64,000 nt of DNA from Escherichia coli (GCF_041248615.1 NZ_CP158426.1), one strand, 5' to 3'; shown: positions 20,431-63,843, numbered from the stretch's first letter. Notes: generated from the letters alone by a model not told the origin. Translations and numbers: made by a program.

Positions 20431-20519
20431 TTTATTAACGCTATTGTAAAACTGCCGTTTTTCCTCGTTTACAACGCGTGCGCTGGACATTACCATCCTC
20501 CTCTGCGATTTATCATCGC

Positions 20520-20599
20520 AACCAAACGACTCGGGGTGCCCTTCTGCGTGAAGGCTGAGAAATACCCGTATCACCTGATCTGGATAATGCCAGCGTAGG
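20520..20599 (+). repeat. Left 80-bp direct repeat (attL-like); copy of the thiM TPP-riboswitch aptamer sequence
   Basis: aaccaaacgactcggggtgcccttctgcgtgaaggctgagaaatacccgtatcacctgatctggataatgccagcgtagg is identical base for base to 33185-33264. Confidence 0.9.
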
Positions 20600-20654
20600 T
20601 TGCCAACATTCTGATTAGTATTCATGTGGTTACATTTCTTTTTGTCCGTGTGTA

Positions 20655-21986
20655 ATGCACCTAATGTACAAAAAGAGCGTAAACATGAGGTACAAAACTC
20701 TTCCATACACGTTTCAAAGAAACGGTAATTACTATCTACAGATTCGGCTTTCGAATGGTCGGATGTATAAAAAATCACTTCTCACTGACAGCTATCGTGA
20801 AGTCTCTGCTTTGATGATTGGTGTTGCTCCGTACATTCCTTTTGTTAAATCATTAGCCATCACAATCCCGATGTTTGATGCCTTTGTTTCAAACCTGATT
20901 ATGTCAAAACTTAGGGCTGTAAAAGTTCCGCTGCTATCACATCAGTCGGTAATTACCCCTGCTACATTCGAGGAACCAGCGACACAAGCCGAACCGCAAA
21001 ACATGCTAACTCTTTCTGATGCGTGGGCTATGTATAAAGCGGAAAAGGGTAAAACATGGACAAAGTCGATCTCAAGGGCGAATGAGCGTTACATGGAAGT
21101 CTTGATGGTTGTCTTGGGAGAGACAACTGACGTAGTTGCGATTTCTAAGCAGGACATCAAGCAGGTGATGGAAGTTGTTGAGAATTTGCCTAAGCGTGTT
21201 GTCCAACCGTATCGCTCAATGAACATCCAGCAACTGATTGAATGTGATGATGTATCACCGAATGAGTTAGTAGGAGTGGAAGCCATTCATAAGCATCTCA
21301 AAATCTACAAATCGCTTTTCAAGACTTTTCTAACAGAAAACAAAGATATTTTGATTAAATCCCCAACTGATGGGGTAGTAGCAGCACCATCTAAAGCAAG
21401 GTTTGGAGCATACAGTTCGGCGGAGATGAAGAAGTTTGTAGAGTGGGCACTTAAGCAGCCAGATGGCTGGCAGAAGTGGATAACATTGTTGTTGGCATAC
21501 ACAGGAGCCAGAAGGGGAGAAATTGCCAAACTGGAAAAATCACAAATAAAATATGATGAGGATAGCCATCGGTATTATTTCCTGATTGCAGAAGGAGGGC
21601 AGGGGAAAACCGAAAATGCTACCCGACAAGTAGTGATACACCCTAAGTTGATCGAATGGGGTTTCATGGAATACGTTGATCGCCAGTGGAAAGAACGGAT
21701 TTTTTCAGAAGTGGCTGGTACAAACATGACGAAGATCGGTAAAGAATTTGCTGATGTGCGTGACCAGCTTGACATTCCGTACTTAGACGATTTTGGACAG
21801 CGGAGGCTTTTGCATAGCATTCGTCATTCTGTTTGCTCTACTGCGATGGCTGGATGGGTAAAGAACATCTTGCATCTGCAACAAACAGTAGGCCATGAGA
21901 AAAGTGGAGGGATCACTAAACGCTACTTACATACGTTCCCACTATCATCAATTTGTTATGTTATTGATGGGATTAGTTGGGTCTGA
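20655..21986 (+). CDS. Tyrosine-type site-specific integrase (island integrase); start may be at MRYKTLPY (20685)
   Basis: C-terminal catalytic signature: AYTGARRGE (box I Arg), HSIRHSV (H-x-x-R), ITKRYLH (Tyr nucleophile). Sits directly next to the left repeat. Confidence 0.85.
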   Translation: MHLMYKKSVNMRYKTLPYTFQRNGNYYLQIRLSNGRMYKKSLLTDSYREVSALMIGVAPYIPFVKSLAITIPMFDAFVSNLIMSKLRAVKVPLLSHQSVITPATFEEPATQAEPQNMLTLSDAWAMYKAEKGKTWTKSISRANERYMEVLMVVLGETTDVVAISKQDIKQVMEVVENLPKRVVQPYRSMNIQQLIECDDVSPNELVGVEAIHKHLKIYKSLFKTFLTENKDILIKSPTDGVVAAPSKARFGAYSSAEMKKFVEWALKQPDGWQKWITLLLAYTGARRGEIAKLEKSQIKYDEDSHRYYFLIAEGGQGKTENATRQVVIHPKLIEWGFMEYVDRQWKERIFSEVAGTNMTKIGKEFADVRDQLDIPYLDDFGQRRLLHSIRHSVCSTAMAGWVKNILHLQQTVGHEKSGGITKRYLHTFPLSSICYVIDGISWV

Positions 21987-22203: not shown

Positions 22204-23106
22204 GTGGATATGTTACTACCAATACGAGTTCATAAACGATTTCTAACTTTATTTAAGACTTTGCAAATTGACGATTGCCCACCGCAATCAACTTTAAATA
22301 TTCATGTACTTAATATCGAAAGCAATGAATTTATATACTGTAAATTAGTTGAAGAATTACGTGACATAATAATTACTTATGTACATTCGAATAGAAGGCT
22401 TGAGGAGTTTAAGGAAAGTTATCCTTCGTATAGCCCTAAACCTTTTTTCGAAGCAATACAAAAATTTCGCAATTATACGTCAAACGAAGGTGAGTTAGGT
22501 GAACTGCTTTTATACGCTTTTCTTGAAACAGGACTAAATGCTCCGAAATTACTTTCCAAAATGCAATTGAAAACAGATTCTAATGATTACATTAAGGGTT
22601 CTGATGGTGTACATCTGTTAGAATTAGATGATGGTTATCAATTAATATTTGGAGAATCAAAGCTCTATGCCGATCTTTTAGAAGGTGCTCGAGAAGCGTT
22701 TGATTCTATTTTAGATTTTAAAAGTAATGGAATGGCATTTGAAAGAGGGCTGATAGATACACACGTTATAAATGAAATGGTTTCAGAAGAAGGTTATGAG
22801 AAAATAAAATCAATTCTTCTTCCTTCTTCTGGCGATGATGGGCCAGATCTTGATTTATCCTTTGGTATATTTCTTGGTTTTGAATTGAAAATAGATAGCT
22901 CACAGTTATCATTGAAAAACAAAGAGTTTAGAGATTGGGTTAATGAGTCCGTGAAACAACATGCTACTCGCGTGGTCAGTACGATACGAAGGAAAATTAT
23001 TAATCATAAATTATATGGTCACGAATTCCACATATATATAGTTCCTTTTACCGATATTGATGTTACACGAAAAAAATTAATTCATGAAATGCTAACAATT
23101 AAGTGA
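22204..23106 (+). CDS. PD-(D/E)xK nuclease-like protein, HamA (DUF1837)-like candidate; start GTG 22204 or ATG 22210
   Basis: Motifs in the order expected for the restriction-endonuclease fold: acidic helix EGELGELLLYAFLE, then SDGVHLLELDDG, then LIFGESKLY (E-x-K). AT-rich; stop overlaps the start of the next gene. Confidence 0.55.
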   Translation: MDMLLPIRVHKRFLTLFKTLQIDDCPPQSTLNIHVLNIESNEFIYCKLVEELRDIIITYVHSNRRLEEFKESYPSYSPKPFFEAIQKFRNYTSNEGELGELLLYAFLETGLNAPKLLSKMQLKTDSNDYIKGSDGVHLLELDDGYQLIFGESKLYADLLEGAREAFDSILDFKSNGMAFERGLIDTHVINEMVSEEGYEKIKSILLPSSGDDGPDLDLSFGIFLGFELKIDSSQLSLKNKEFRDWVNESVKQHATRVVSTIRRKIINHKLYGHEFHIYIVPFTDIDVTRKKLIHEMLTIK

Positions 23107-25691
23107 ACACTATGAATGAATTAAATTCAAGTAAAAACATTCATTTGGCAGCTCGTCTTGCAGATGATGCTTTTGAAAGTGCTTATTTTAAAGAAATCAA
23201 TAAGTTTATAAGTGGTTTATACAATTACAGTTTATTTAACTGCGATTCAGATGTTAGTCTCTCCGAGAGTGATAACAATAAAATAGCACACGCTTTGCGT
23301 TTTGCAGATATATTTTCACATTCTTCAAAAGAAAATCATAGATCATGTGCATTTGAAATTATAAGTAGAATAGCCTTATTAAAAAAACATGATCCTTATT
23401 TTAAATTTATAGGTACTGCTGTTATTAATCGGCTTGGGGTTTATGCAGCAGAAAAACTCATATCAAAAGGGGTAAAATTACCCTTAGATAGAGAAGTTGA
23501 TTCTATTATTAAAAAATCAGTTCAGAAAACAGATGAAGATGGAGTATATTTCACTGATAAACAACATGAGTTATACAAACTTTTAAAAAGTAGCAAAACA
23601 ATTAGTTTTGCTGGTCCCACTTCGATGGGAAAGTCATTTGTTATTAATGCATACATTAAGGAAATAACTCTTAAAAAAGAGCTTAAAAATATAGCTTTAA
23701 TTGTTCCTACACGGGCTTTAATAAGCCAAAATGCACTTAAGTTAAAAATTGATATTGCATTGTATAAGAATGAAAGCCCTTATAAAGTTGTTACGACATC
23801 CTACATTATTAATGGTGATGAAAGTAAAAATAAAGGCTATATTTTTATTCTCACCCCAGAAAGGCTGGTTAGTCTCATAAGCACTATTCCTGGACTAATG
23901 ATTGATTATGTTTTTGTAGATGAAGCTCAAAAGTTAACAACAAAAAATGATTCGAGGAGTCTTGTTACTTATTCAGCTATAGAGCAAACAATTAGTAAAA
24001 ATCCTGAGGCAAGATTATTCTTCTCTTCACCTAATTTATCTAATCCTGAAATATTTAATATTTTGTTTGATAGAAAAGACGCTTCGGTATATAGAAATAC
24101 AGAAGGTGCAACTACTCAGAATATGTATTTTATTGATCTTTTAAATAGCAGCTTTAGCTATGTTAATACCGAGAAAAGGACGCTTGAAAAAATAGATGAG
24201 ATCTCTAATACTTACACGAATACAAATGATGTTATCTATAAATTAAATAATGGTAAAAGTAAAATAATTTATTGTGGGGGGATAGAAAGCACGCTTGAGA
24301 GAACACGTAGCTTTATCAATTATCTCAAAATTAATAAGAAAAAAAGAAAGCATTTAAATTTAGAAATATCTTCTGAGATAAGAAACTTTGTTCATGATAA
24401 CTATGAACTTGCAGAAGCCATCAACTATGGTGTTGCTTTCCACTTTGGAAACTTGCCTCAATCGATTCGAGATTTAATTGAGCATCATTTCAAAATAGGA
24501 AATATTGACTATCTATTCTGTACATCAACCCTACTTGAGGGAGTCAATTTACCTGCAAGATCCGTATTTATTCTTACGCATAAAAAAGGCCCCAGTCCAT
24601 TAGAGTCGGTTGATTTTTGGAATCTGGCTGGGAGAGCTGGGCGATTATCTATGGAATTGTCAGGGGATATTTTTTGTATTAGGGATGATAATAAGCTTTG
24701 GAATAAAAAAGCTGTTGATAATATCCTTCTGTCTGACAAAAATAACATTTCATTAAAGCCAAGCTTCTATATTGAAGACGAAAAAAGATTGAACGATTTA
24801 CACCATATAATTACGACTGGTAAAACAGGGAATATTAAAAATGCTGAGTTCCTTAGAACTTTAGGAGATATGATAAGAATAGACACTCTGAGGGATTCTA
24901 AAGAACTTCCTCTTATTAGTTATTTCCAAAGCAGTGGAAAATCAGAAATTTTGTTAAGTGCAGAAAAAAGCACTGAAAATATTACCATGCCAATGAATAT
25001 CCTTTTGGCAAATAGTCATATTGCGATTGATTCGCAGTATCATGCTTTTAAAAAAATAAAAAGCCTTACAGTTAAGGAACTGAAATTATCATGGCAGCCT
25101 ACATACGAAGAAATTAAAGAAAAATTGAATTTGATATTCGATATTTACCAAGTTGAAAAGTTTGCAACAGGTAGAGAACGTCTTTATTTAAATTCAATTC
25201 CATATTATGCAGTATTACTGTTTCAATGGATTCGTGGAAATAGTCTACAGGAAATTATCTCGGGGGCAATTGCTTATAGAAAGAACAAAAGTATATATAT
25301 TAAAAATACACCTGTTCTTTTTGACAGCGAAAACCCAGCTCATTTAACTGCATTAGTTAATGAAACTATAAAAGACATTGAGTTGCGTGTAGGTTACCAG
25401 TTACAAAATTATTTTTCACATTACTGTCAGCTTCTGAATTATGTGTTACAAGGAAATCCAGGGGCAAACTGGTCTCAGTTCATTGAGTTTGGCTCTAATG
25501 AGCCAATAGTATGGCACCTACAAATGATGGGCTTTTCAAGGGATAGTGCAGTTTTTCTCAAGAAGAATTTTTCAAAACATCTTAAACTTGATAATGAAAT
25601 GAATAAACTCATCATAATGGATAAGGAACTGATCAAGCGTTCTTTCAAAAAAGATGGACTACATTACTTAGAAATCCAATCGTTATTATAA
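23103..25691 (+). CDS. Superfamily-2 helicase (DEAQ box), HamB-like candidate
   Basis: Walker A/motif I FAGPTSMGKSFV, motif II VFVDEAQKL, motif VI-like NLAGRAGRL; about 170-aa N-terminal extension before the helicase core; GTGA start/stop overlap with the upstream gene. Confidence 0.6.
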   Translation: MNTMNELNSSKNIHLAARLADDAFESAYFKEINKFISGLYNYSLFNCDSDVSLSESDNNKIAHALRFADIFSHSSKENHRSCAFEIISRIALLKKHDPYFKFIGTAVINRLGVYAAEKLISKGVKLPLDREVDSIIKKSVQKTDEDGVYFTDKQHELYKLLKSSKTISFAGPTSMGKSFVINAYIKEITLKKELKNIALIVPTRALISQNALKLKIDIALYKNESPYKVVTTSYIINGDESKNKGYIFILTPERLVSLISTIPGLMIDYVFVDEAQKLTTKNDSRSLVTYSAIEQTISKNPEARLFFSSPNLSNPEIFNILFDRKDASVYRNTEGATTQNMYFIDLLNSSFSYVNTEKRTLEKIDEISNTYTNTNDVIYKLNNGKSKIIYCGGIESTLERTRSFINYLKINKKKRKHLNLEISSEIRNFVHDNYELAEAINYGVAFHFGNLPQSIRDLIEHHFKIGNIDYLFCTSTLLEGVNLPARSVFILTHKKGPSPLESVDFWNLAGRAGRLSMELSGDIFCIRDDNKLWNKKAVDNILLSDKNNISLKPSFYIEDEKRLNDLHHIITTGKTGNIKNAEFLRTLGDMIRIDTLRDSKELPLISYFQSSGKSEILLSAEKSTENITMPMNILLANSHIAIDSQYHAFKKIKSLTVKELKLSWQPTYEEIKEKLNLIFDIYQVEKFATGRERLYLNSIPYYAVLLFQWIRGNSLQEIISGAIAYRKNKSIYIKNTPVLFDSENPAHLTALVNETIKDIELRVGYQLQNYFSHYCQLLNYVLQGNPGANWSQFIEFGSNEPIVWHLQMMGFSRDSAVFLKKNFSKHLKLDNEMNKLIIMDKELIKRSFKKDGLHYLEIQSLL

Positions 25692-29552: not shown

Positions 29553-31028
29553 TCATTTTTTGCTTTTTTGTACTTCCTTTTCGTATTTGTTCCACATAGC
29601 CTTTTGCTCTTCGGGACTGAGTGCTGTATTACCACTGGCAAGAAACACCTTGAACGCTTCTAACTCAAGCCCTGGGTTGCGGCTTTTCCAGCGGCGAAAA
29701 CGCTTAGCGTGATTATCATCAAGAGTGAAACGCTTTTGCTTATTCTTTGAACCTTGCGGCCTGCCTCTCGACCTCTGCTCATCATCAATACCGATATCTA
29801 TATACTCAATATTATCTGTAAGAGATCTGGCTTGCCATTCATCAAAAACATAAACAGTCTGTGTTTCAGTACTGTCAAAATCCCTTGAAATTCCTCGTAG
29901 TACGAACTGGTGTAAACTTTCGTACTCCCTCGCAACATGTATCGCCTCGCCGTCAATCTCAAAGAACAATTCGCACTGTTTAGCCTCTGTTTCAGAGGGA
30001 CGCATACAAGCGAGCCAGACGCACGTGAGCAAGTGTTGGTACTGGTTAAACCCTCTGGCATCCGGGCTTATCTCTGTGCCGTTTTTGAGGCTCTGAGAAT
30101 CGCTTTTGTTCTTCGTCCAGTAGAAATCCTGTCCCTCAAGTTTTTTATCAATAAATGAGTATATTTTTTGTACTTTATCAGGGTTATTAGTCTTCCATGT
30201 CTTCGATAGTTTTTGATTTTTTGAGAAGTAATAAACCTTTAATCTGTCTTTGAGAGCTGTTTTTCGTGTCAGTAATCCTCCAAGTTCAGTACTTTCAAAG
30301 AGTTCTTTATTGCCTTTATAGATCAATGAATTTTCGAAATTAGCTCCGAGAAAGGTGATTGATACGTCTTTGTACTTACTGAGATCTTTCCATGCGGTAA
30401 TATTAAGCTGTTCCTTTTTCGCATCGGTAAAGTACTCATTATTCATGATGAACATATCATTTTCGTTAATTGCTGGTAGCTGGTTCAAAATATTCTTCAG
30501 TACTTCCCCTTGTATTTCTGGTTTTCTTTCTGCCGCAATATACATATTTTTATCATCTAATGTCAGTACATTGTGTATTAATGAATTAAGAATTGTATTT
30601 TTTATATTAGTATCACCCTCATTAATATTCTGAAAAGAGTGAAAATTAGTAACGTCGTCAATATAAATATTACAGTCAGATAACAATTCAGGAGGAATTT
30701 TGAAAAACGTTTTATCTGTTATGAGTAATGTTTTATTACTTCCAGATGAAAGAAAGTTAATAACTGAATTAATAACACTTTCATCTTTTGGTACTGTATC
30801 TGTAATTATATACTCGCAATTATTGATTTGCTTTGCTGTCTGCTTAATAAGTTCTTGAGTGTTCTGTACTAAAATATATTTTTCAGTACTGTTATTGATT
30901 ATATTGCATATAGCAGTAGTTTTACCTGAACCACAAGGGGCGGAGACATACTTAAATTTATTATAAATAGGTGTGGGATTAATCATTTGTACACGCTCCA
31001 TATTGATTAATGTAGAAAGGTCAGCCAT
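29553..31028 (-). CDS. P-loop NTPase with basic C-terminal tail containing an AT-hook-like RGRP motif; function unknown
   Basis: N-terminal Walker A SAPCGSGKTT, Walker B-like NIYIDDV; C-terminus RSRGRPQGSKNKQKRF. Confidence 0.6.
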   Translation of the reverse strand: MADLSTLINMERVQMINPTPIYNKFKYVSAPCGSGKTTAICNIINNSTEKYILVQNTQELIKQTAKQINNCEYIITDTVPKDESVINSVINFLSSGSNKTLLITDKTFFKIPPELLSDCNIYIDDVTNFHSFQNINEGDTNIKNTILNSLIHNVLTLDDKNMYIAAERKPEIQGEVLKNILNQLPAINENDMFIMNNEYFTDAKKEQLNITAWKDLSKYKDVSITFLGANFENSLIYKGNKELFESTELGGLLTRKTALKDRLKVYYFSKNQKLSKTWKTNNPDKVQKIYSFIDKKLEGQDFYWTKNKSDSQSLKNGTEISPDARGFNQYQHLLTCVWLACMRPSETEAKQCELFFEIDGEAIHVAREYESLHQFVLRGISRDFDSTETQTVYVFDEWQARSLTDNIEYIDIGIDDEQRSRGRPQGSKNKQKRFTLDDNHAKRFRRWKSRNPGLELEAFKVFLASGNTALSPEEQKAMWNKYEKEVQKSKK

Positions 31029-31370
31029 TCCAGTGTCTGGCCTTTCGTTGTTTTAGTTATTAGTCTTTTTGAGTTGCGACAACTGCAAGAGAATGTTTAT
31101 AAACAAGTGAAATAAGCAGTTTTACCGCCTCAAAAGCTACAGTCAGTTTCGTAATTATTTTCGAAAGCATCGTAAATTTCACTTCGCTATCTTCTATGCA
31201 AAAATTAGCAGCCTGAGGTATTTAATGATTGAGATGTGGCCTGTTGATAAGAGGGTTTGTATTGCTTGTTCTGCTCTTTGTTAATTTGTGACTTATTCCT
31301 TTCACAATGATCGGCTATGTTTGATAACTCTGTTAGGAAATCACCTATGGCTACCATATTGGATTTGCCC

Positions 31371-32276
31371 CTATATTTCCAGACACCTGTTATCACTTAA
31401 CCCATTACTGGCCTGCTGCCGCAGATATTCCCGTGGCGAGCGATAACCCAGTGCACTATGCGGATGCCATTCGTTATAATGCTCGAACGCCTCTGCAAGG
31501 TTCTTTGCTGCCGTTAACCCGTCTGGTTTAGGCATGATACTGATGTAGTCACGCTTTATCGTTTTCACGAAGCTCTCTGCTATGCCGTTACTCTCCGGAC
31601 TCCGCACCGCCGTGTTCTTCGGTTCAAGCCCCAATATCCGGGCAAACTGCCGTGTTTCATTAGCCCGGTAGCATGAACCATTATCCGTCAGCCACTCTAC
31701 TGGAGACGCCGGAAGCTCGTTGCCGAAGCGGCGTTCCACCGCTCCCAGCATGACGTCCTGTACTGTTTCACTGTCGAAGCCGCCCGTAGTGACTGCCCAG
31801 TGCAGTGCCTCACGGTCACAGCAGTCCAGCGCGAACGTGACTCGCAGTTTTTCTCCGTTATCACAGCGGAACTCGAACCCGTCAGAGCACCATCGTTGAT
31901 TGCTTTCTTTCACGGCCACTTTGCCAGTATGTGCCCGTTTCGATGGCGGTACAGCGGTTTTTCGCTCAAGCAACAGCGCATTCTGGCGCATGATCCGGTA
32001 AACACGTTTGGCATTGATCGCAGGCGTACCATCAAGTTCGGCCTGTCTGCGAAGCAGCGCCCATACCCGACGATAACCATACGTGGGCAGCTCTCCGATA
32101 ACATGGTGTATACGGAGAAGCACATCCGTATCATCTGAGTGACGGCTGCGGCGACCATCTTTCCAGTCATCGGTTCGTCTGAGAATTACGTGCAACTGCG
32201 CACGCGACACCCGGAGACAACGGCTGACTAAGCTTACTCCCCATCCCCGGGCAATAAGGGCGCGTGCGCTATCCAC
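31371..32276 (-). CDS. insD: IS2 transposase OrfB (InsD), DDE domain
   Basis: 301-aa ORF recognised as IS2 InsD; overlaps insC in the -1 frame as expected for an orfAB frameshift fusion. Confidence 0.9.
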
Positions 32277-32599
32277 TTTTTTGCACGCCCGTATTCAACG
32301 GCTTCTTTAAGGAGTTCATTTTCCATCGTTTTTTTGCCGAGCAGGCGCTGGAGTTCTTTAATCTGCTTCATGGCAGCAGCAAGTTCAGAGGCAGGAACGA
32401 CCTGCTCTCCTGCGGCCACAGCAGTAAGACTTCCCTCCTGGTATTGCTTGCGCCAGAGAAATAACTGGCTGGCTGCCACACCGTGTTGCCGGGCAACAAG
32501 GGAGACCTTCATTCCCGGTTCAAAACTCTGCTGAACAATAGCGATCTTTTCCTGTGTAGTACGCCGTCTGCGTTTCTCCGGTCCTAAGACATCAATCAT
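32234..32599 (-). CDS. insC: IS2 OrfA (InsC), HTH protein
   Basis: [56 protein letters not shown]...; start taken at MIDVL (ORF track begins 45 nt upstream). Confidence 0.9.
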
Positions 32600-33184
32600 C
32601 TGCTCTCCAATGACTAGTCTAAAAACTAGTATTAAGACTATCACTTATTTAAGTGATATTGGTTGTCTGGAGATTCATGGGGCCAGTCTACATATAATCA
32701 TGTTCATCTTCTAATTCTTTAAATTTTAATAGAGAAATCTCTTCATAATATTCTTTCATTTTCATATAAATCACCTTTTATTTTTTTGTTGTTAACACAG
32801 GTTTTTTTCTGCACTACACATTATAGCACATAGAATTAATTCGTTTCATTTTCTGTCAATGAAATAGAGTAAAGATAAATGCTTTTATAAAGCACTTATC
32901 ACATCCGTTGCCTTGCTATATATAAAAAGTTCTCCAAACTATACTGGTGTATATTTTCCCCATCAGATACAGTTGTTTTTAAACATTACAATGTTGGATT
33001 CTTGGTTCCAAATAAATCGAGCAACTATTAGTGTTTCAAAATGAAGTTGGGAGCTATTCCTTAATTCGTATGAGGTACAAAATGGGGTACTCGGTGGGGT
33101 ACAGCGTGTATAAGTGACGTCACCACGGGTAAACTTGCATCGGCGAGCAACTTAACCTAAGCTGACAAAAATTAAGAGAAATGT

Positions 33185-33317
33185 AACCAAACGACTCGGG
33201 GTGCCCTTCTGCGTGAAGGCTGAGAAATACCCGTATCACCTGATCTGGATAATGCCAGCGTAGGGAAGTCACGGACCACCAGGTCATTGCTTCTTCACGT
33301 TATGGCAGGAGCAAACT
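33185..33317 (+). promoter_or_regulatory. thiM TPP riboswitch (thi-box aptamer plus expression platform); its first 80 bp are also the right direct repeat (attR-like) of the island
   Basis: Sequence ...cgactcggggtgcccttctgcgtgaaggctgagaaatacccgtatcacctgatctggataatgccagcgtagggaagtcacggaccaccaggtcattgcttcttcacgttatggcaggagcaaactATG matches the recalled E. coli thiM riboswitch. Confidence 0.9.
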
Positions 33318-34106
33318 ATGCAAGTCGACCTGCTGAGTTCCGCGCAATCTGCGCACGCGTTACACCTTTTTCACCAACATTCCCCTCTTGTGCACTGCAT
33401 GACCAACGATGTGGTGCAAACCTTTACTGCCAATACCTTGCTGGCGCTCGGTGCATCGCCAGCGATGGTTATCGAAACCGAAGAGGCCAGTCAGTTTGCG
33501 GCTATCGCCAGTGCGTTGCTGATTAACGTTGGCACGCTGACGCAGCCACGCGCACAGGCGATGCGTGCCGCCGTTGAACAGGCAAAACGCTCTCAAACAC
33601 CCTGGATGCTTGATCCAGTAGCGGTGGGTGCACTCGATTATCGCCGCCGTTTTTGTCTGGAACTTCTGTCTCATAAGCCAACCGCCATACGTGGTAATGC
33701 TTCGGAAATCATGGCATTAGCTGGCGTTGCTAATGGTGGACGGGGAGTGGATACCACTGACGCCGCAGCTAACGCGATACCCGCTGCACAAACACTGGCA
33801 CGGGAAACTGGCGCAATCGTCGTGGTCACTGGCGAGATGGATTATGTTACCGATGGACATCGTATCATTGGTATTCACGGTGGCGATCCGTTAATGACCA
33901 AAGTGGTAGGAACTGGCTGTGCATTATCGGCGGTTGTCGCTGCCTGTTGTGCGTTACCAGGCGATACGCTGGAAAATGTCGCATCTGCCTGTCACTGGAT
34001 GAAACAAGCCGGAGAACGCGCAGTCGCCAGTAGCGAGGGGCCAGGCAGTTTTGTTCCACATTTCCTTGATGCGCTCTGGCAATTGACGCCGGAGGTGCAG
34101 GCATGA
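33318..34106 (+). CDS. thiM: Hydroxyethylthiazole kinase
   Basis: 262-aa [36 protein letters not shown]...; 4-bp overlap with thiD. Confidence 0.95.
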
Positions 34107-49453: not shown

Positions 49454-49540
49454 AAAAAATAAGCCCGTGTAAGGGAGATTACACAGGCTAAGGAGGTGGT
49501 TCCTGGTACAGCTAGCATTTTATGGGTTATGTTTTTCAGC
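49454..49540 (-). ncRNA. cyaR: CyaR (RyeE) Hfq-dependent small RNA
   Basis: Minus-strand sequence GCTGAAAAACATAACCCATAAAATGCTAGCTGTACCAGGAACCACCTCCTTAGCCTGTGTAATCTCCCTTACACGGGCTTATTTTTT matches the recalled CyaR sequence, ending in a terminator hairpin and U-tract. Confidence 0.9.
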
Positions 49541-49624
49541 GAAACGGATGATAACCTTAATAAATGCAGCTGTATGTGATCGGTTTCTAAGAATTTTCCA
49601 TCCGGGAAAAATAATCGAAATTAA

Positions 49625-62856: not shown

Positions 62857-62999
62857 GAAACGGGAAAGCCCCTCCCGAGGAAGGGGCCTTAAATAAGGAA
62901 AGGGTCATGATGAAGCTACTCATCATCGTGGTGCTCTTAGTGATTAGCTACCCAGCATACTAAGACTACCAGGGCGGGGGAAACCCCGCTCTACCCTCA
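62857..62999 (-). ncRNA. sibB: Sib antisense sRNA, copy 1 (ends approximate)
   Basis: Minus-strand promoter TTGACA (63029-63034)-17 nt-TACTTT (63006-63011); terminator hairpin GCCCCTTCCTCGGGAGGGGC plus UUUCCCGUUU near 62860-62888; fully overlaps the ibs ORF. Confidence 0.65.
62907..62963 (+). CDS. ibsB: Ibs type I toxin peptide, copy 1 (MMKLLIIVVLLVISYPAY)
   Basis: 18-codon hydrophobic ORF with AGGAAAGGG SD; matches the Ibs peptide family. A/B assignment is approximate. Confidence 0.75.
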   Translation: MMKLLIIVVLLVISYPAY

Positions 63000-63184
63000 C
63001 TCCTGAAAGTATGCCTTCACGATAAGATTGTCAATCTGCAGGCTTTGCAGTCTGCGATCCTGCCAGCAAATATTCTTTGCGAGACGTTACGCAATAATCA
63101 CACTGGAAACTATTTTATCCGCAAGTCAGCGATAGACTGCATACAGGGCGAAAGGAGGTAAGCCGACGATTTCAGCGGGACGCT

Positions 63185-63327
63185 GAAACGGGAAAGCCCC
63201 TCCCGAGGAAGGGGCCTTAAATAAGGAAAGGGTCATGATGAAGATACTCATCATCGTGGTGCTCTTAGTGATTAGCTACCCAGCATACTAAGACTACCAG
63301 GGCGGGGGAAACCCCGCTCTACCCTCA
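63185..63327 (-). ncRNA. Sib antisense sRNA, copy 2 (ends approximate)
   Basis: Same promoter (TTGACA at 63357-63362) and terminator architecture, offset 328 bp from copy 1. Confidence 0.6.
63235..63291 (+). CDS. Ibs type I toxin peptide, copy 2 (MMKILIIVVLLVISYPAY)
   Basis: Identical to copy 1 except L4I; same SD context. Confidence 0.75.
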   Translation: MMKILIIVVLLVISYPAY

Positions 63328-63513
63328 CTCCTGAAAGTATGCCTTCACGATAAGATTGTCAATCCGCAGGCTTTGCAGTCTGCGATCCTGCCAGCAAATA
63401 TTCTTTGCGAGTCGTTACGCAATAATCACAGAGGAAACTATTTTGGTCACGCGTTAGCGATAGACTGCATTCAGGGCGAAAGGAGGTAAGCCGACGATTT
63501 CAGCGGGACGCTG

Positions 63514-63662
63514 AAACGGGAAACCCTCTCCCGGAGAAGAGGGCTTTTAATAAGGAAAGGGTTATGATGAAGCACGTCATCATACTGGAGATACTCTTAG
63601 TGATTAGCTTCCAGGCTTACTAAGAACACCAGGGGGAGGGAGAAACCTCTCCCTAACCCTCA
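63514..63662 (-). ncRNA. sibA: Sib antisense sRNA, copy 3 (ends approximate)
   Basis: Promoter TTGACA (63692-63697)-17 nt-TAATTT (63669-63674) on the minus strand; hairpin CCCTCTCCCGGAGAAGAGGG at 63524-63543. Confidence 0.6.
63564..63623 (+). CDS. ibsA: Ibs type I toxin peptide, copy 3 (MMKHVIILEILLVISFQAY)
   Basis: 19-codon ORF of IbsA type; contains a Glu codon (GAG) inside the hydrophobic stretch. Confidence 0.7.
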   Translation: MMKHVIILEILLVISFQAY

Positions 63663-63843
63663 CTCCTGAAATTATGTCACTCCGCCCTTAGTGTCAATCG
63701 ACGGCTCTCCGTTCTTGCGAGGCGAATAGCAAAATTTTCTGCGCCGCCGGGCCTAATTCTGAAAGTTTCTTCGTTTGCTCTTATTTCATTATTGCAATCG
63801 GTATGATACCGGGCCTCAATAATTCTCTAAGAAAGGATTTCTT

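Follow-up and report, generated by a model that had tools for sequence, protein, structure and literature searches.

The region considered here, positions 20461-20700 of a 64,000-nucleotide (nt) stretch of the Escherichia coli genome (GCF_041248615.1, NZ_CP158426.1; the whole stretch is called the window below), is likely attL, the left attachment junction of a 12.7-kb integrative island that carries the Hachiman defence system and lies between rcnR and thiM. According to this interpretation, which we favour with good though incomplete confidence, the tyrosine integrase encoded beside the junction belongs to a clade that appears to use the aptamer of the thiM thiamine pyrophosphate (TPP) riboswitch as its chromosomal attachment site. 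The aptamer fragment preceding the integrase gene (int) would then be a structural by-product of the attachment-site design and not a riboswitch for int, as judged with the same confidence from modelled structures. A riboswitch-targeting integrase clade and the replacement of the thiMD promoter by island DNA represent a more interesting result than the regulatory idea put forward in an earlier reading of the sequence alone, in which int expression was possibly coupled to thiamine status.

Direct Repeat and Island Boundaries

The island is bracketed by a perfect direct repeat of 80 nt. Both copies exceed the gathering score of the Rfam TPP family (RF00059), which is 54.3 bits: the covariance score of the left copy is 58.0 bits (20522-20617; E-value 8.9e-9, whole window) and that of the right one is 71.2 bits. 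The repeat copies and the adjoining integrase gene are located as follows:

20520-20599, + strand: attL, left 80-nt identity block, from the 5' strand of helix P1 through the 3' strand of helix P4 of the TPP aptamer
33185-33264, + strand: attR, right 80-nt copy, assigned by the direct repeat and the Rfam match
20685-21986, + strand: tyrosine integrase, 433 aa (Pfam PF00589, PHROG integrase, RefSeq start)

The sequence-only reading had placed an aptamer copy between the native thiM promoter region and the integrase gene, and both the repeat and the RF00059 match agree with this placement. To the left of the island are rcnR and the native upstream region, and to the right are the remaining thiM leader, thiM and thiD. 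The empty site of E. coli W consists of the attL left flank, one repeat and the attR right flank, with nothing extra. Because of the repeat pair and the match to this empty site, the region is read as an integrated element with attL and attR. In strain KE55, RefSeq annotates both copies as TPP riboswitches beside a tyrosine recombinase.

That the repeat is a local duplication, a transposon target-site duplication or an assembly artefact, unrelated to site-specific recombination, has practically no chance of being true. Nothing favours this explanation except the mere existence of the repeat, and 80 nt far exceeds any target-site duplication. In addition, an integrase gene adjoins one copy with the same geometry in dozens of genomes and in many genera, and complete genomes with and without the island differ by exactly the island plus one repeat, so the comparative data already refute it.

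Pattern scans for an excised, attP-type joint found none in viral contigs. In metagenomes, two contigs were detected; they can be read equally well as tandem arrays and have no terminal overlap.

Integrase Family and Its Distribution

The joint between riboswitch and integrase was found in 191 of 5426 complete E. coli genomes, most of which contain an integrase variant with approximately 85% identity and a different cargo; the cargo at this joint is Hachiman in one genome and GmrSD in another, ETEC6334. When one genome per species was scanned across genera, 25 loci were detected, distributed over about 15 genera of Enterobacterales; their integrases are 55-86% identical. The aptamer copy ends 85-88 nt before the int ATG in 23 of these 25 loci, and a second aptamer copy is located 3-11 kb downstream in 10 of them. 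With the window and ETEC6334 included, 12 attL/attR pairs were available for comparison. The right-hand copy is followed by a ThiM orthologue (64-100% identity) in all 10 of the 12 pairs that have enough downstream contig.

The same order was found with more distant integrases (36-43% identity, including a 546-aa long form), where a TPP aptamer ends 50-80 nt before int in all four testable contigs. The 3' strand of P1 is not restored in any of the four, and two of them lie directly after rcnR. The use of the thiM TPP riboswitch aptamer as the attachment site of the clade is considered likely on these comparisons. The description of the left copy as orphaned in the earlier reading is misleading, since the order of aptamer and then int is intrinsic to the attachment site of the whole integrase clade.

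Several individual loci deserve mention. Two loci with integrases 40-43% identical, L033 and L034 (the latter with the 546-aa form), have a TPP aptamer just upstream of int in a different neighbourhood; rcnR is absent near L033, and int of L034 is followed by a VapE/DUF5906 primase-like gene. The right end of another island is found about 70 nt upstream of the int-proximal aptamer in L005, L007, L009, L017, L022, L024 and L026, i.e., the islands are stacked in tandem. In L009, a type-A integrase is combined with a type-B right end (A and B denote sequence types of these islands), which suggests that the array is composite or has been partly deleted. Contig L006 (QFQM01000240.1, 6.5 kb), whose label assigns it to a Flavobacterium psychrophilum metagenome-assembled genome, contains an enterobacterial-type left end with the aptamer and an 83% identical integrase; this contig is probably mis-binned.

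Probable Position of Strand Exchange

Two elements at the inner edge of the left repeat bear on the position of recombination:

20589-20599, no strand assigned: GCCAGCGTAGG, right edge of the identity block, likely strand-exchange region
20600-20618, + strand: first island bases TTGCCAACATTCTGATTAG, imperfect inverted repeat of 20575-20593, candidate core-type integrase site C'

Across all sequence types, CGTAG(G) marks the end of the identity block, except that in two distant relatives the end is shifted a few nucleotides further, to CGTAGGGAA(G). The sequence common to both copies in L017 is confined to the last 24 nt. In type-B islands, the sequence following the block is an inverted copy of the aptamer TGGATAATGCCAG around the 7-bp CGTAGTC, with inverted arms of 13 bp. 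By its sequence, this arrangement is the classic core-site layout C-O-C'; its equivalent in the window, 20600-20618, is a weaker inverted repeat of 20575-20593. Strand exchange probably takes place around GCCAGCGTAGG, where the identity block ends on the right. With an exchange at this edge, the left copy would consist almost wholly of host aptamer sequence, and the 80 nt that serve thiM at present would be island-derived. Mapping of the crossover from differences between attL and attR was rejected, since such differences do not locate it; only the 24-nt identity in L017 and the type-B inverted repeat bear on the question.

Structure of the Left Aptamer Copy

From +18 to +97, the left copy is base-for-base the thiM aptamer. 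The sequence-only reading stated that the left repeat keeps the aptamer and lacks the thiM expression platform. The first statement stands in part: the cmscan alignment shows the two sensor arms (P2/P3 and P4/P5) together with the ligand-contact motifs CUGAGA and GCG, whereas the junction GA and the P1 3' strand AGUC have been swapped for island sequence and three of the five P1 pairs are non-canonical. The second statement is correct, and no expression platform that could respond to the aptamer is found in the left copy. The P1 switch helix that closes the three-way junction is lacking here and also in the other clades. This helix couples TPP binding to the expression platform (PMC8208051).

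In the RNAfold prediction for the window leader, island segment 20599-20618 pairs with the 5' strand of P4/P5, destroying that sensor arm. The segment 20600-20618 is the partner in this anti-aptamer hairpin in both the minimum-energy and the centroid structures, and homologous positions are found in types A and B. Type-B leaders are likewise predicted to lose P4/P5, through a 13-bp hairpin, and type-A leaders retain it in the minimum-energy fold. A replacement P1 in the left copy, formed by GCAACC (20517-22) with GGUUGC (20598-603), was considered and rejected; it uses up two of the four P4 pairs and has no counterpart in types A and B.

In other genera, the ligand-contact motifs are kept in most attL copies (20 of 25). 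Changes at otherwise invariant positions were found in 5 of 25 attL copies and in 0 of 13 right-hand copies, a trend that is not significant. Positions invariant in all 13 thiM-proximal copies are altered in the L5 loop of L011 and in the P2 strand of L012 and L019, and the attL copy of L029 has decayed, with many substitutions at invariant positions.

Native thiM Promoter and Probable Transcription toward int

The chromosomal sequence to the left of the repeat contains two elements of the native thiM transcription unit:

20468-20496, + strand: native thiM promoter (-35 TTTACA 20468-73, 17-bp spacer, -10 TACCAT 20491-96; probable start near 20503)
20503-20519, + strand: first 17 nt of the native thiM leader, with a 5' hairpin at 20504-20520 (RNAfold), identical to the E. 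coli W empty site

The hexamers TTTACA (20468-20473) and TACCAT (20491-20496) had already been pointed out from the sequence; both are located as described, and the promoter scan gives 9 of 12 matches. The same scan of the region reports 4 promoter-like sites with 5.3 expected by chance, so the hexamers alone prove nothing. In the thiM numbering of Bastet et al. 2017 (PMC5499598), the open reading frame corresponds to residues 151-172, with U152 in the AUG and G142 in the ribosome-binding site. This numbering puts the thiM start 150 nt before the A of the AUG and 17 nt upstream of the repeat, that is, at 20503. Since this position is 7 nt past TACCAT, the promoter is very likely the real thiM promoter. 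An equivalent TTTACA-17-TATCCT is located at the corresponding place in Citrobacter koseri (L008).

No terminator-like sites were predicted from the aptamer to int in the window, C. koseri and Enterobacter cloacae (L015), and no sigma-70-like promoter reached the scan threshold in the same three loci. Because there is no terminator-like or promoter-like site from 20503 to 20685, read-through into int is the default expectation, and transcription from the retained thiM promoter probably runs into int. The earlier suggestion that thiM-promoter transcripts enter int is therefore plausible in view of the promoter, its orientation and the lack of a predicted terminator. In the excised form, the surrogate promoter of the island, described below, would by geometry take the same position before the aptamer and int.

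Two candidates in this interval were rejected. Type-A islands contain a GC-rich GGCCGAAATTCGGCC hairpin, which lacks the U-tract of a terminator and is lost in the window, and a search for an int promoter in the 85-nt spacer gave weak candidates only (GTTACA/TTGACT, 17-18 bp, TAATGC), below the scan threshold.

Integrase Gene and Its Leader

The integrase shows a weak match to PF00589 and no P4-type arm-binding domain in the Pfam analysis; its translation contains the catalytic-region motifs ARRGE, HSIRHS and KRYLH. A start about 55 bp after the repeat, as given in the sequence-only reading, is replaced here by ATG 20685, located 85 nt after it, which is the start conserved in the family and annotated in RefSeq. 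The start at 20685 has the Shine-Dalgarno (SD) sequence AAGAG/AAGGG, and ATG 20655 merely opens the longest reading frame. The window and the type-A loci (A2 columns 67-99) share this conserved upstream in-frame ATG (20655-20684, with no stop between), encoding MHL.YKK...; it is used by some gene callers, giving a protein of 443 aa, has no SD, lies in the loop of a predicted hairpin and coincides with the GGTACAAAAAG repeat.

The following elements surround the int start and recur at the right end of the island:

20622-20692, + strand: predicted hairpin with arms UUCUUUUUGU and ACAAAAAGAG, sequestering the int SD AAGAG (20672-76) and AUG (20685-87)
20642-20699, no strand assigned: three GGTACAAAA-like repeats at 20642 (inverted), 20666 and 20690, candidate arm-type integrase sites over the int SD and start codon
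33075-33107, + strand: GGTACA repeats at 33075, 33087 and 33099 at the island right end, candidate arm-type sites

The GGTACAAAA motif recurs at both ends of the window island with the same 24-nt spacing, and its type-B equivalent is ACGGGAC. On this sequence pattern, the repeats at both ends are likely arm-type integrase sites that would permit autoregulation. Int output would be limited locally, as the spacer and the first int codons carry inverted copies of the repeats found at both island ends; on RNA, the int SD and AUG would be enclosed in a hairpin formed by these inverted copies. Folding of the chimeric leader, proposed earlier as a check for terminator or SD-sequestering structures, indeed predicts an SD-sequestering hairpin. 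Positions -14 to +3 of int are predicted to be paired in 23 of 24 loci (mean paired fraction 0.79).

It can be proposed that this hairpin acts on RNA: int would remain untranslated on read-through transcripts, as in IS10-like fold-back inhibition, and Int would be made only from a start inside the hairpin or from an opened hairpin. The predicted burial of SD and AUG in 23 of 24 loci spans sequence families that share almost no spacer sequence, int is always located downstream of some promoter, and G-U pairs together with a small number of compensatory changes maintain the pairing. Predicted folding is more stable for the + strand than for the - strand (mean -17.9 and -13.7 kcal/mol, respectively; Wilcoxon p 1.3e-4, the sequences not being independent). 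However, no consensus-level promoter is present inside the hairpin in the window, L008 and L015, the type-B loop is too short for one, and the covariation statistics are unconvincing. The arms also match a repeat that is present, unpaired, at the other end of the island, and a DNA-binding role explains this equally well. Insulation at the RNA level is consequently regarded as unlikely, though it is a possibility to be taken seriously. Autoregulation on DNA and sequestration on RNA may be viewed as two readings of the same repeats, and neither, as modelled, would involve TPP.

Aptamer Fragment and Thiamine

In the predicted fold, the int SD and AUG lie in a hairpin separate from the aptamer. 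When the aptamer was masked to mimic the ligand-bound state, SD-AUG pairing in the window changed from 0.89 to 0.88; the result was similar in 13 other loci representing all types. As the fragment has neither switch helix nor platform, and the models predict no structural coupling to the int start, it is not regarded as an int riboswitch. The proposed coupling of int to thiamine status is thus disfavoured by these models, in which P1 and the platform are missing and masking leaves the SD/AUG pairing unchanged.

The coupling could still be argued as follows: the thiM promoter transcribes int through a functional TPP-binding aptamer, so that integrase level and excision follow thiamine status. 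The intact promoter faces int without a predicted terminator in between, P2/P3, P4/P5 and the conserved ligand contacts are intact, and the copy is still above the Rfam threshold. The retention of motifs in 20 of the 25 attL copies of other genera and of P4/P5 in the type-A minimum-energy fold would also fit. Against this, none of the clades has the junction and the 3' strand of P1, the helix that transduces binding. Moreover, P4/P5 is predicted to pair with sequence further downstream in the leaders of the window and of type B, the predicted int SD/AUG state is unaltered by masking in 14 loci, and L011, L012, L019 and L029 are altered at positions invariant in all 13 right-hand copies. Such control of int is very improbable. 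There is a very slender chance that the aptamer without P1 still works as a thiamine sensor, in which case TPP binding would compete co-transcriptionally with the anti-aptamer pairing of 20575-20618 and change read-through, Rho access or folding of the int leader. If this were true, integrase expression and excision would be tuned by host thiamine, and a whole clade of mobile elements would have co-opted half of a host riboswitch.

The interpretation of the region as attL with a non-regulatory aptamer fragment is preferred here, and several points weigh against it. The exact crossover position is one that we infer, and the start at 20503 comes from published numbering and not from mapping in this strain. 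The consensus scan may have missed a weak int promoter, e.g., TTGACT-17-TAATGC in type A. Covariation in the type-A hairpin is weak, with 19-78 of 500 shuffles reaching the observed values, and the hairpin may be a mere shadow of DNA binding sites.

Proposed Rebuilding of the thiMD Leader at the Right Junction

At the right junction, the following elements were identified:

33135-33163, + strand: island surrogate thiMD promoter, assigned by conservation (TTGCAT 33135-40, 17 bp, TAAGCT 33158-63)
33185-33317, + strand: complete thiM riboswitch, composed of the right copy and 33265-33317, with the aptamer at 33187-33283 (71.2 bits)
33318-34106, + strand: thiM, followed by thiD

Since the cut falls in the 5' leader, the island must supply a promoter and the 5' part of the aptamer. 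When 14 island right ends from 9 genera are aligned, TTGC and TA..CT are invariant; the spacer has a constant length of 17 bp, and its sequence and the flanks vary. Judged by its conservation, this pattern represents a sigma-70 promoter. The predicted surrogate start, near 33170, is within about 2 nt of the equivalent of the native start, 33168. With strand exchange at the right edge of the identity block, the working thiM riboswitch at attR would be a chimera of the island promoter and aptamer 5' part with the host P1 3' strand, platform and thiMD.

In about 483 of 5426 E. coli genomes (approximately 9%), the thiM riboswitch directly adjoins the right end of an island; 470 are of one type and 13 are of the type found in the window. 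About 313 of these 483 are O157:H7-type remnants without int and attL. In E. coli O157:H7 FRIK2455 (L001, 3730-6001), the remnant comprises 2.3 kb between rcnR and the thiM riboswitch and contains genes for an outer membrane protein and a hypothetical protein and a helix-turn-helix fragment of insertion sequence (IS) type. It stops exactly at the left edge of the repeat, keeps the right-end promoter motif and is found in about 313 genomes at an identity of at least 99%. From their sequences, thiMD in the remnant strains is cut off from the ancestral promoter and would depend on island-derived DNA.

Island Cargo and Other Features of the Window

The remaining annotated genes of the island are the following:

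22204-25691, + strand: adjacent Hachiman genes hamA (DUF1837) and hamB (helicase) (PADLOC HamA E-value 2.4e-120, HamB E-value 8.3e-296)
29553-31028, - strand: P-loop protein, 491 aa (RefSeq DEAD/DEAH helicase family; PHROG 2467, function unknown, E-value 1e-38; weak CyRepA1)
31360-32687, - strand: IS3-family insertion of about 1.33 kb with reading frames of 136 and 301 aa and a 9-bp overlap at the joints

In addition, a serine invertase/resolvase and two unannotated genes are present. The 491-aa P-loop protein might have an island replication or mobilisation function. The IS3-family element is absent from the otherwise 99.9% identical island of KE55; it splits a gene of 74 aa that has no family match and adjoins the right end of the island.

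Elsewhere in the window, three tandem copies of the Sib antitoxin small RNA (62892-63697, - strand, RF00113, 141-146 bits) imply three ibs/sib type I toxin-antitoxin modules, and an OrzO-P antitoxin RNA (1258-1331, - strand, 88.8 bits) implies a zor-orz type I toxin-antitoxin locus. The small RNA CyaR/RyeE is located at 49457-49542 (- strand, 100.7 bits).

Comparison with Known Systems

In the supplementary table of Hochhauser et al. 2023, the row 'rcnR-thiM' lists a type IV restriction system with no mobile-element call. A full-text literature search, with incomplete coverage, found no paper in which a riboswitch is described as the target of integration or thiM is connected with an integrase. 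By sequence, in about 1 in 11 complete E. coli genomes, including O157:H7, thiMD expression and thiamine sensing would run on mobile-element DNA. The locus provides a natural system for studying the replacement of host expression signals by an element, the control of int behind an active promoter and the movement of defence cargo (Hachiman, GmrSD) between genera.

Compared with the E. coli thiM TPP riboswitch (RF00059), the left copy has the same aptamer sequence, the native promoter and the first 17 nt of the leader. It is without the P1 3' strand, the platform of anti-SD and SD, and the Rho site in the thiM coding region, i.e., the defining features of the switch are absent.

In the integrases KplE1 IntS and P4 Int, the int regulatory region overlaps attL, is bound by Int and is subject to negative autoregulation. 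By analogy, the motifs common to both ends of the present island overlap the int SD and start, a layout expected for autoregulation through arm sites. Unlike in those systems, an active host promoter also feeds the int region from outside, and Int binding here is putative. In ICEclc, the promoter Pcirc at the far end of the element faces int only in the circular form; the far-end promoter of the present island would, by analogy, likewise face int after circularisation. Fold-back inhibition in IS10 relies on a hairpin that buries the recombinase start on transcripts begun outside. The analogy with IS10 is incomplete: a hairpin is predicted here, but no promoter was found inside it in the window, L008 and L015.

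A dusA-specific integrase family, reportedly described by Farrugia and colleagues in 2015, is said to include elements that integrate into and replace the 5' end of protein genes. The present island resembles the dusA-type elements in its insertion near the 5' end of a transcription unit and in providing a substitute 5' end with expression signals. It differs from them in that a promoter and four fifths of a riboswitch aptamer are replaced, so that the host operon needs island DNA for ligand sensing.

Genes for tRNA or tmRNA serve as integration targets for genomic islands and satellites that encode P4-like tyrosine integrases. As in such islands, the integrase gene is located beside one junction, the repeat is a duplicated piece of a conserved structured RNA, the element brings the displaced part so that the target stays functional, the cargo is variable and often anti-phage, and tandem arrays are formed. 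Unlike in tRNA and tmRNA islands, the target is a cis-regulatory aptamer in a 5' untranslated region and not an RNA gene. Because it is the 5' portion that is duplicated here, a promoter has to be supplied by the island, and the host promoter is left facing int. The element therefore belongs to the kind of site-specific islands that target and repair a conserved structured-RNA sequence, and its variation on this kind is the aptamer of a 5' leader as the target.

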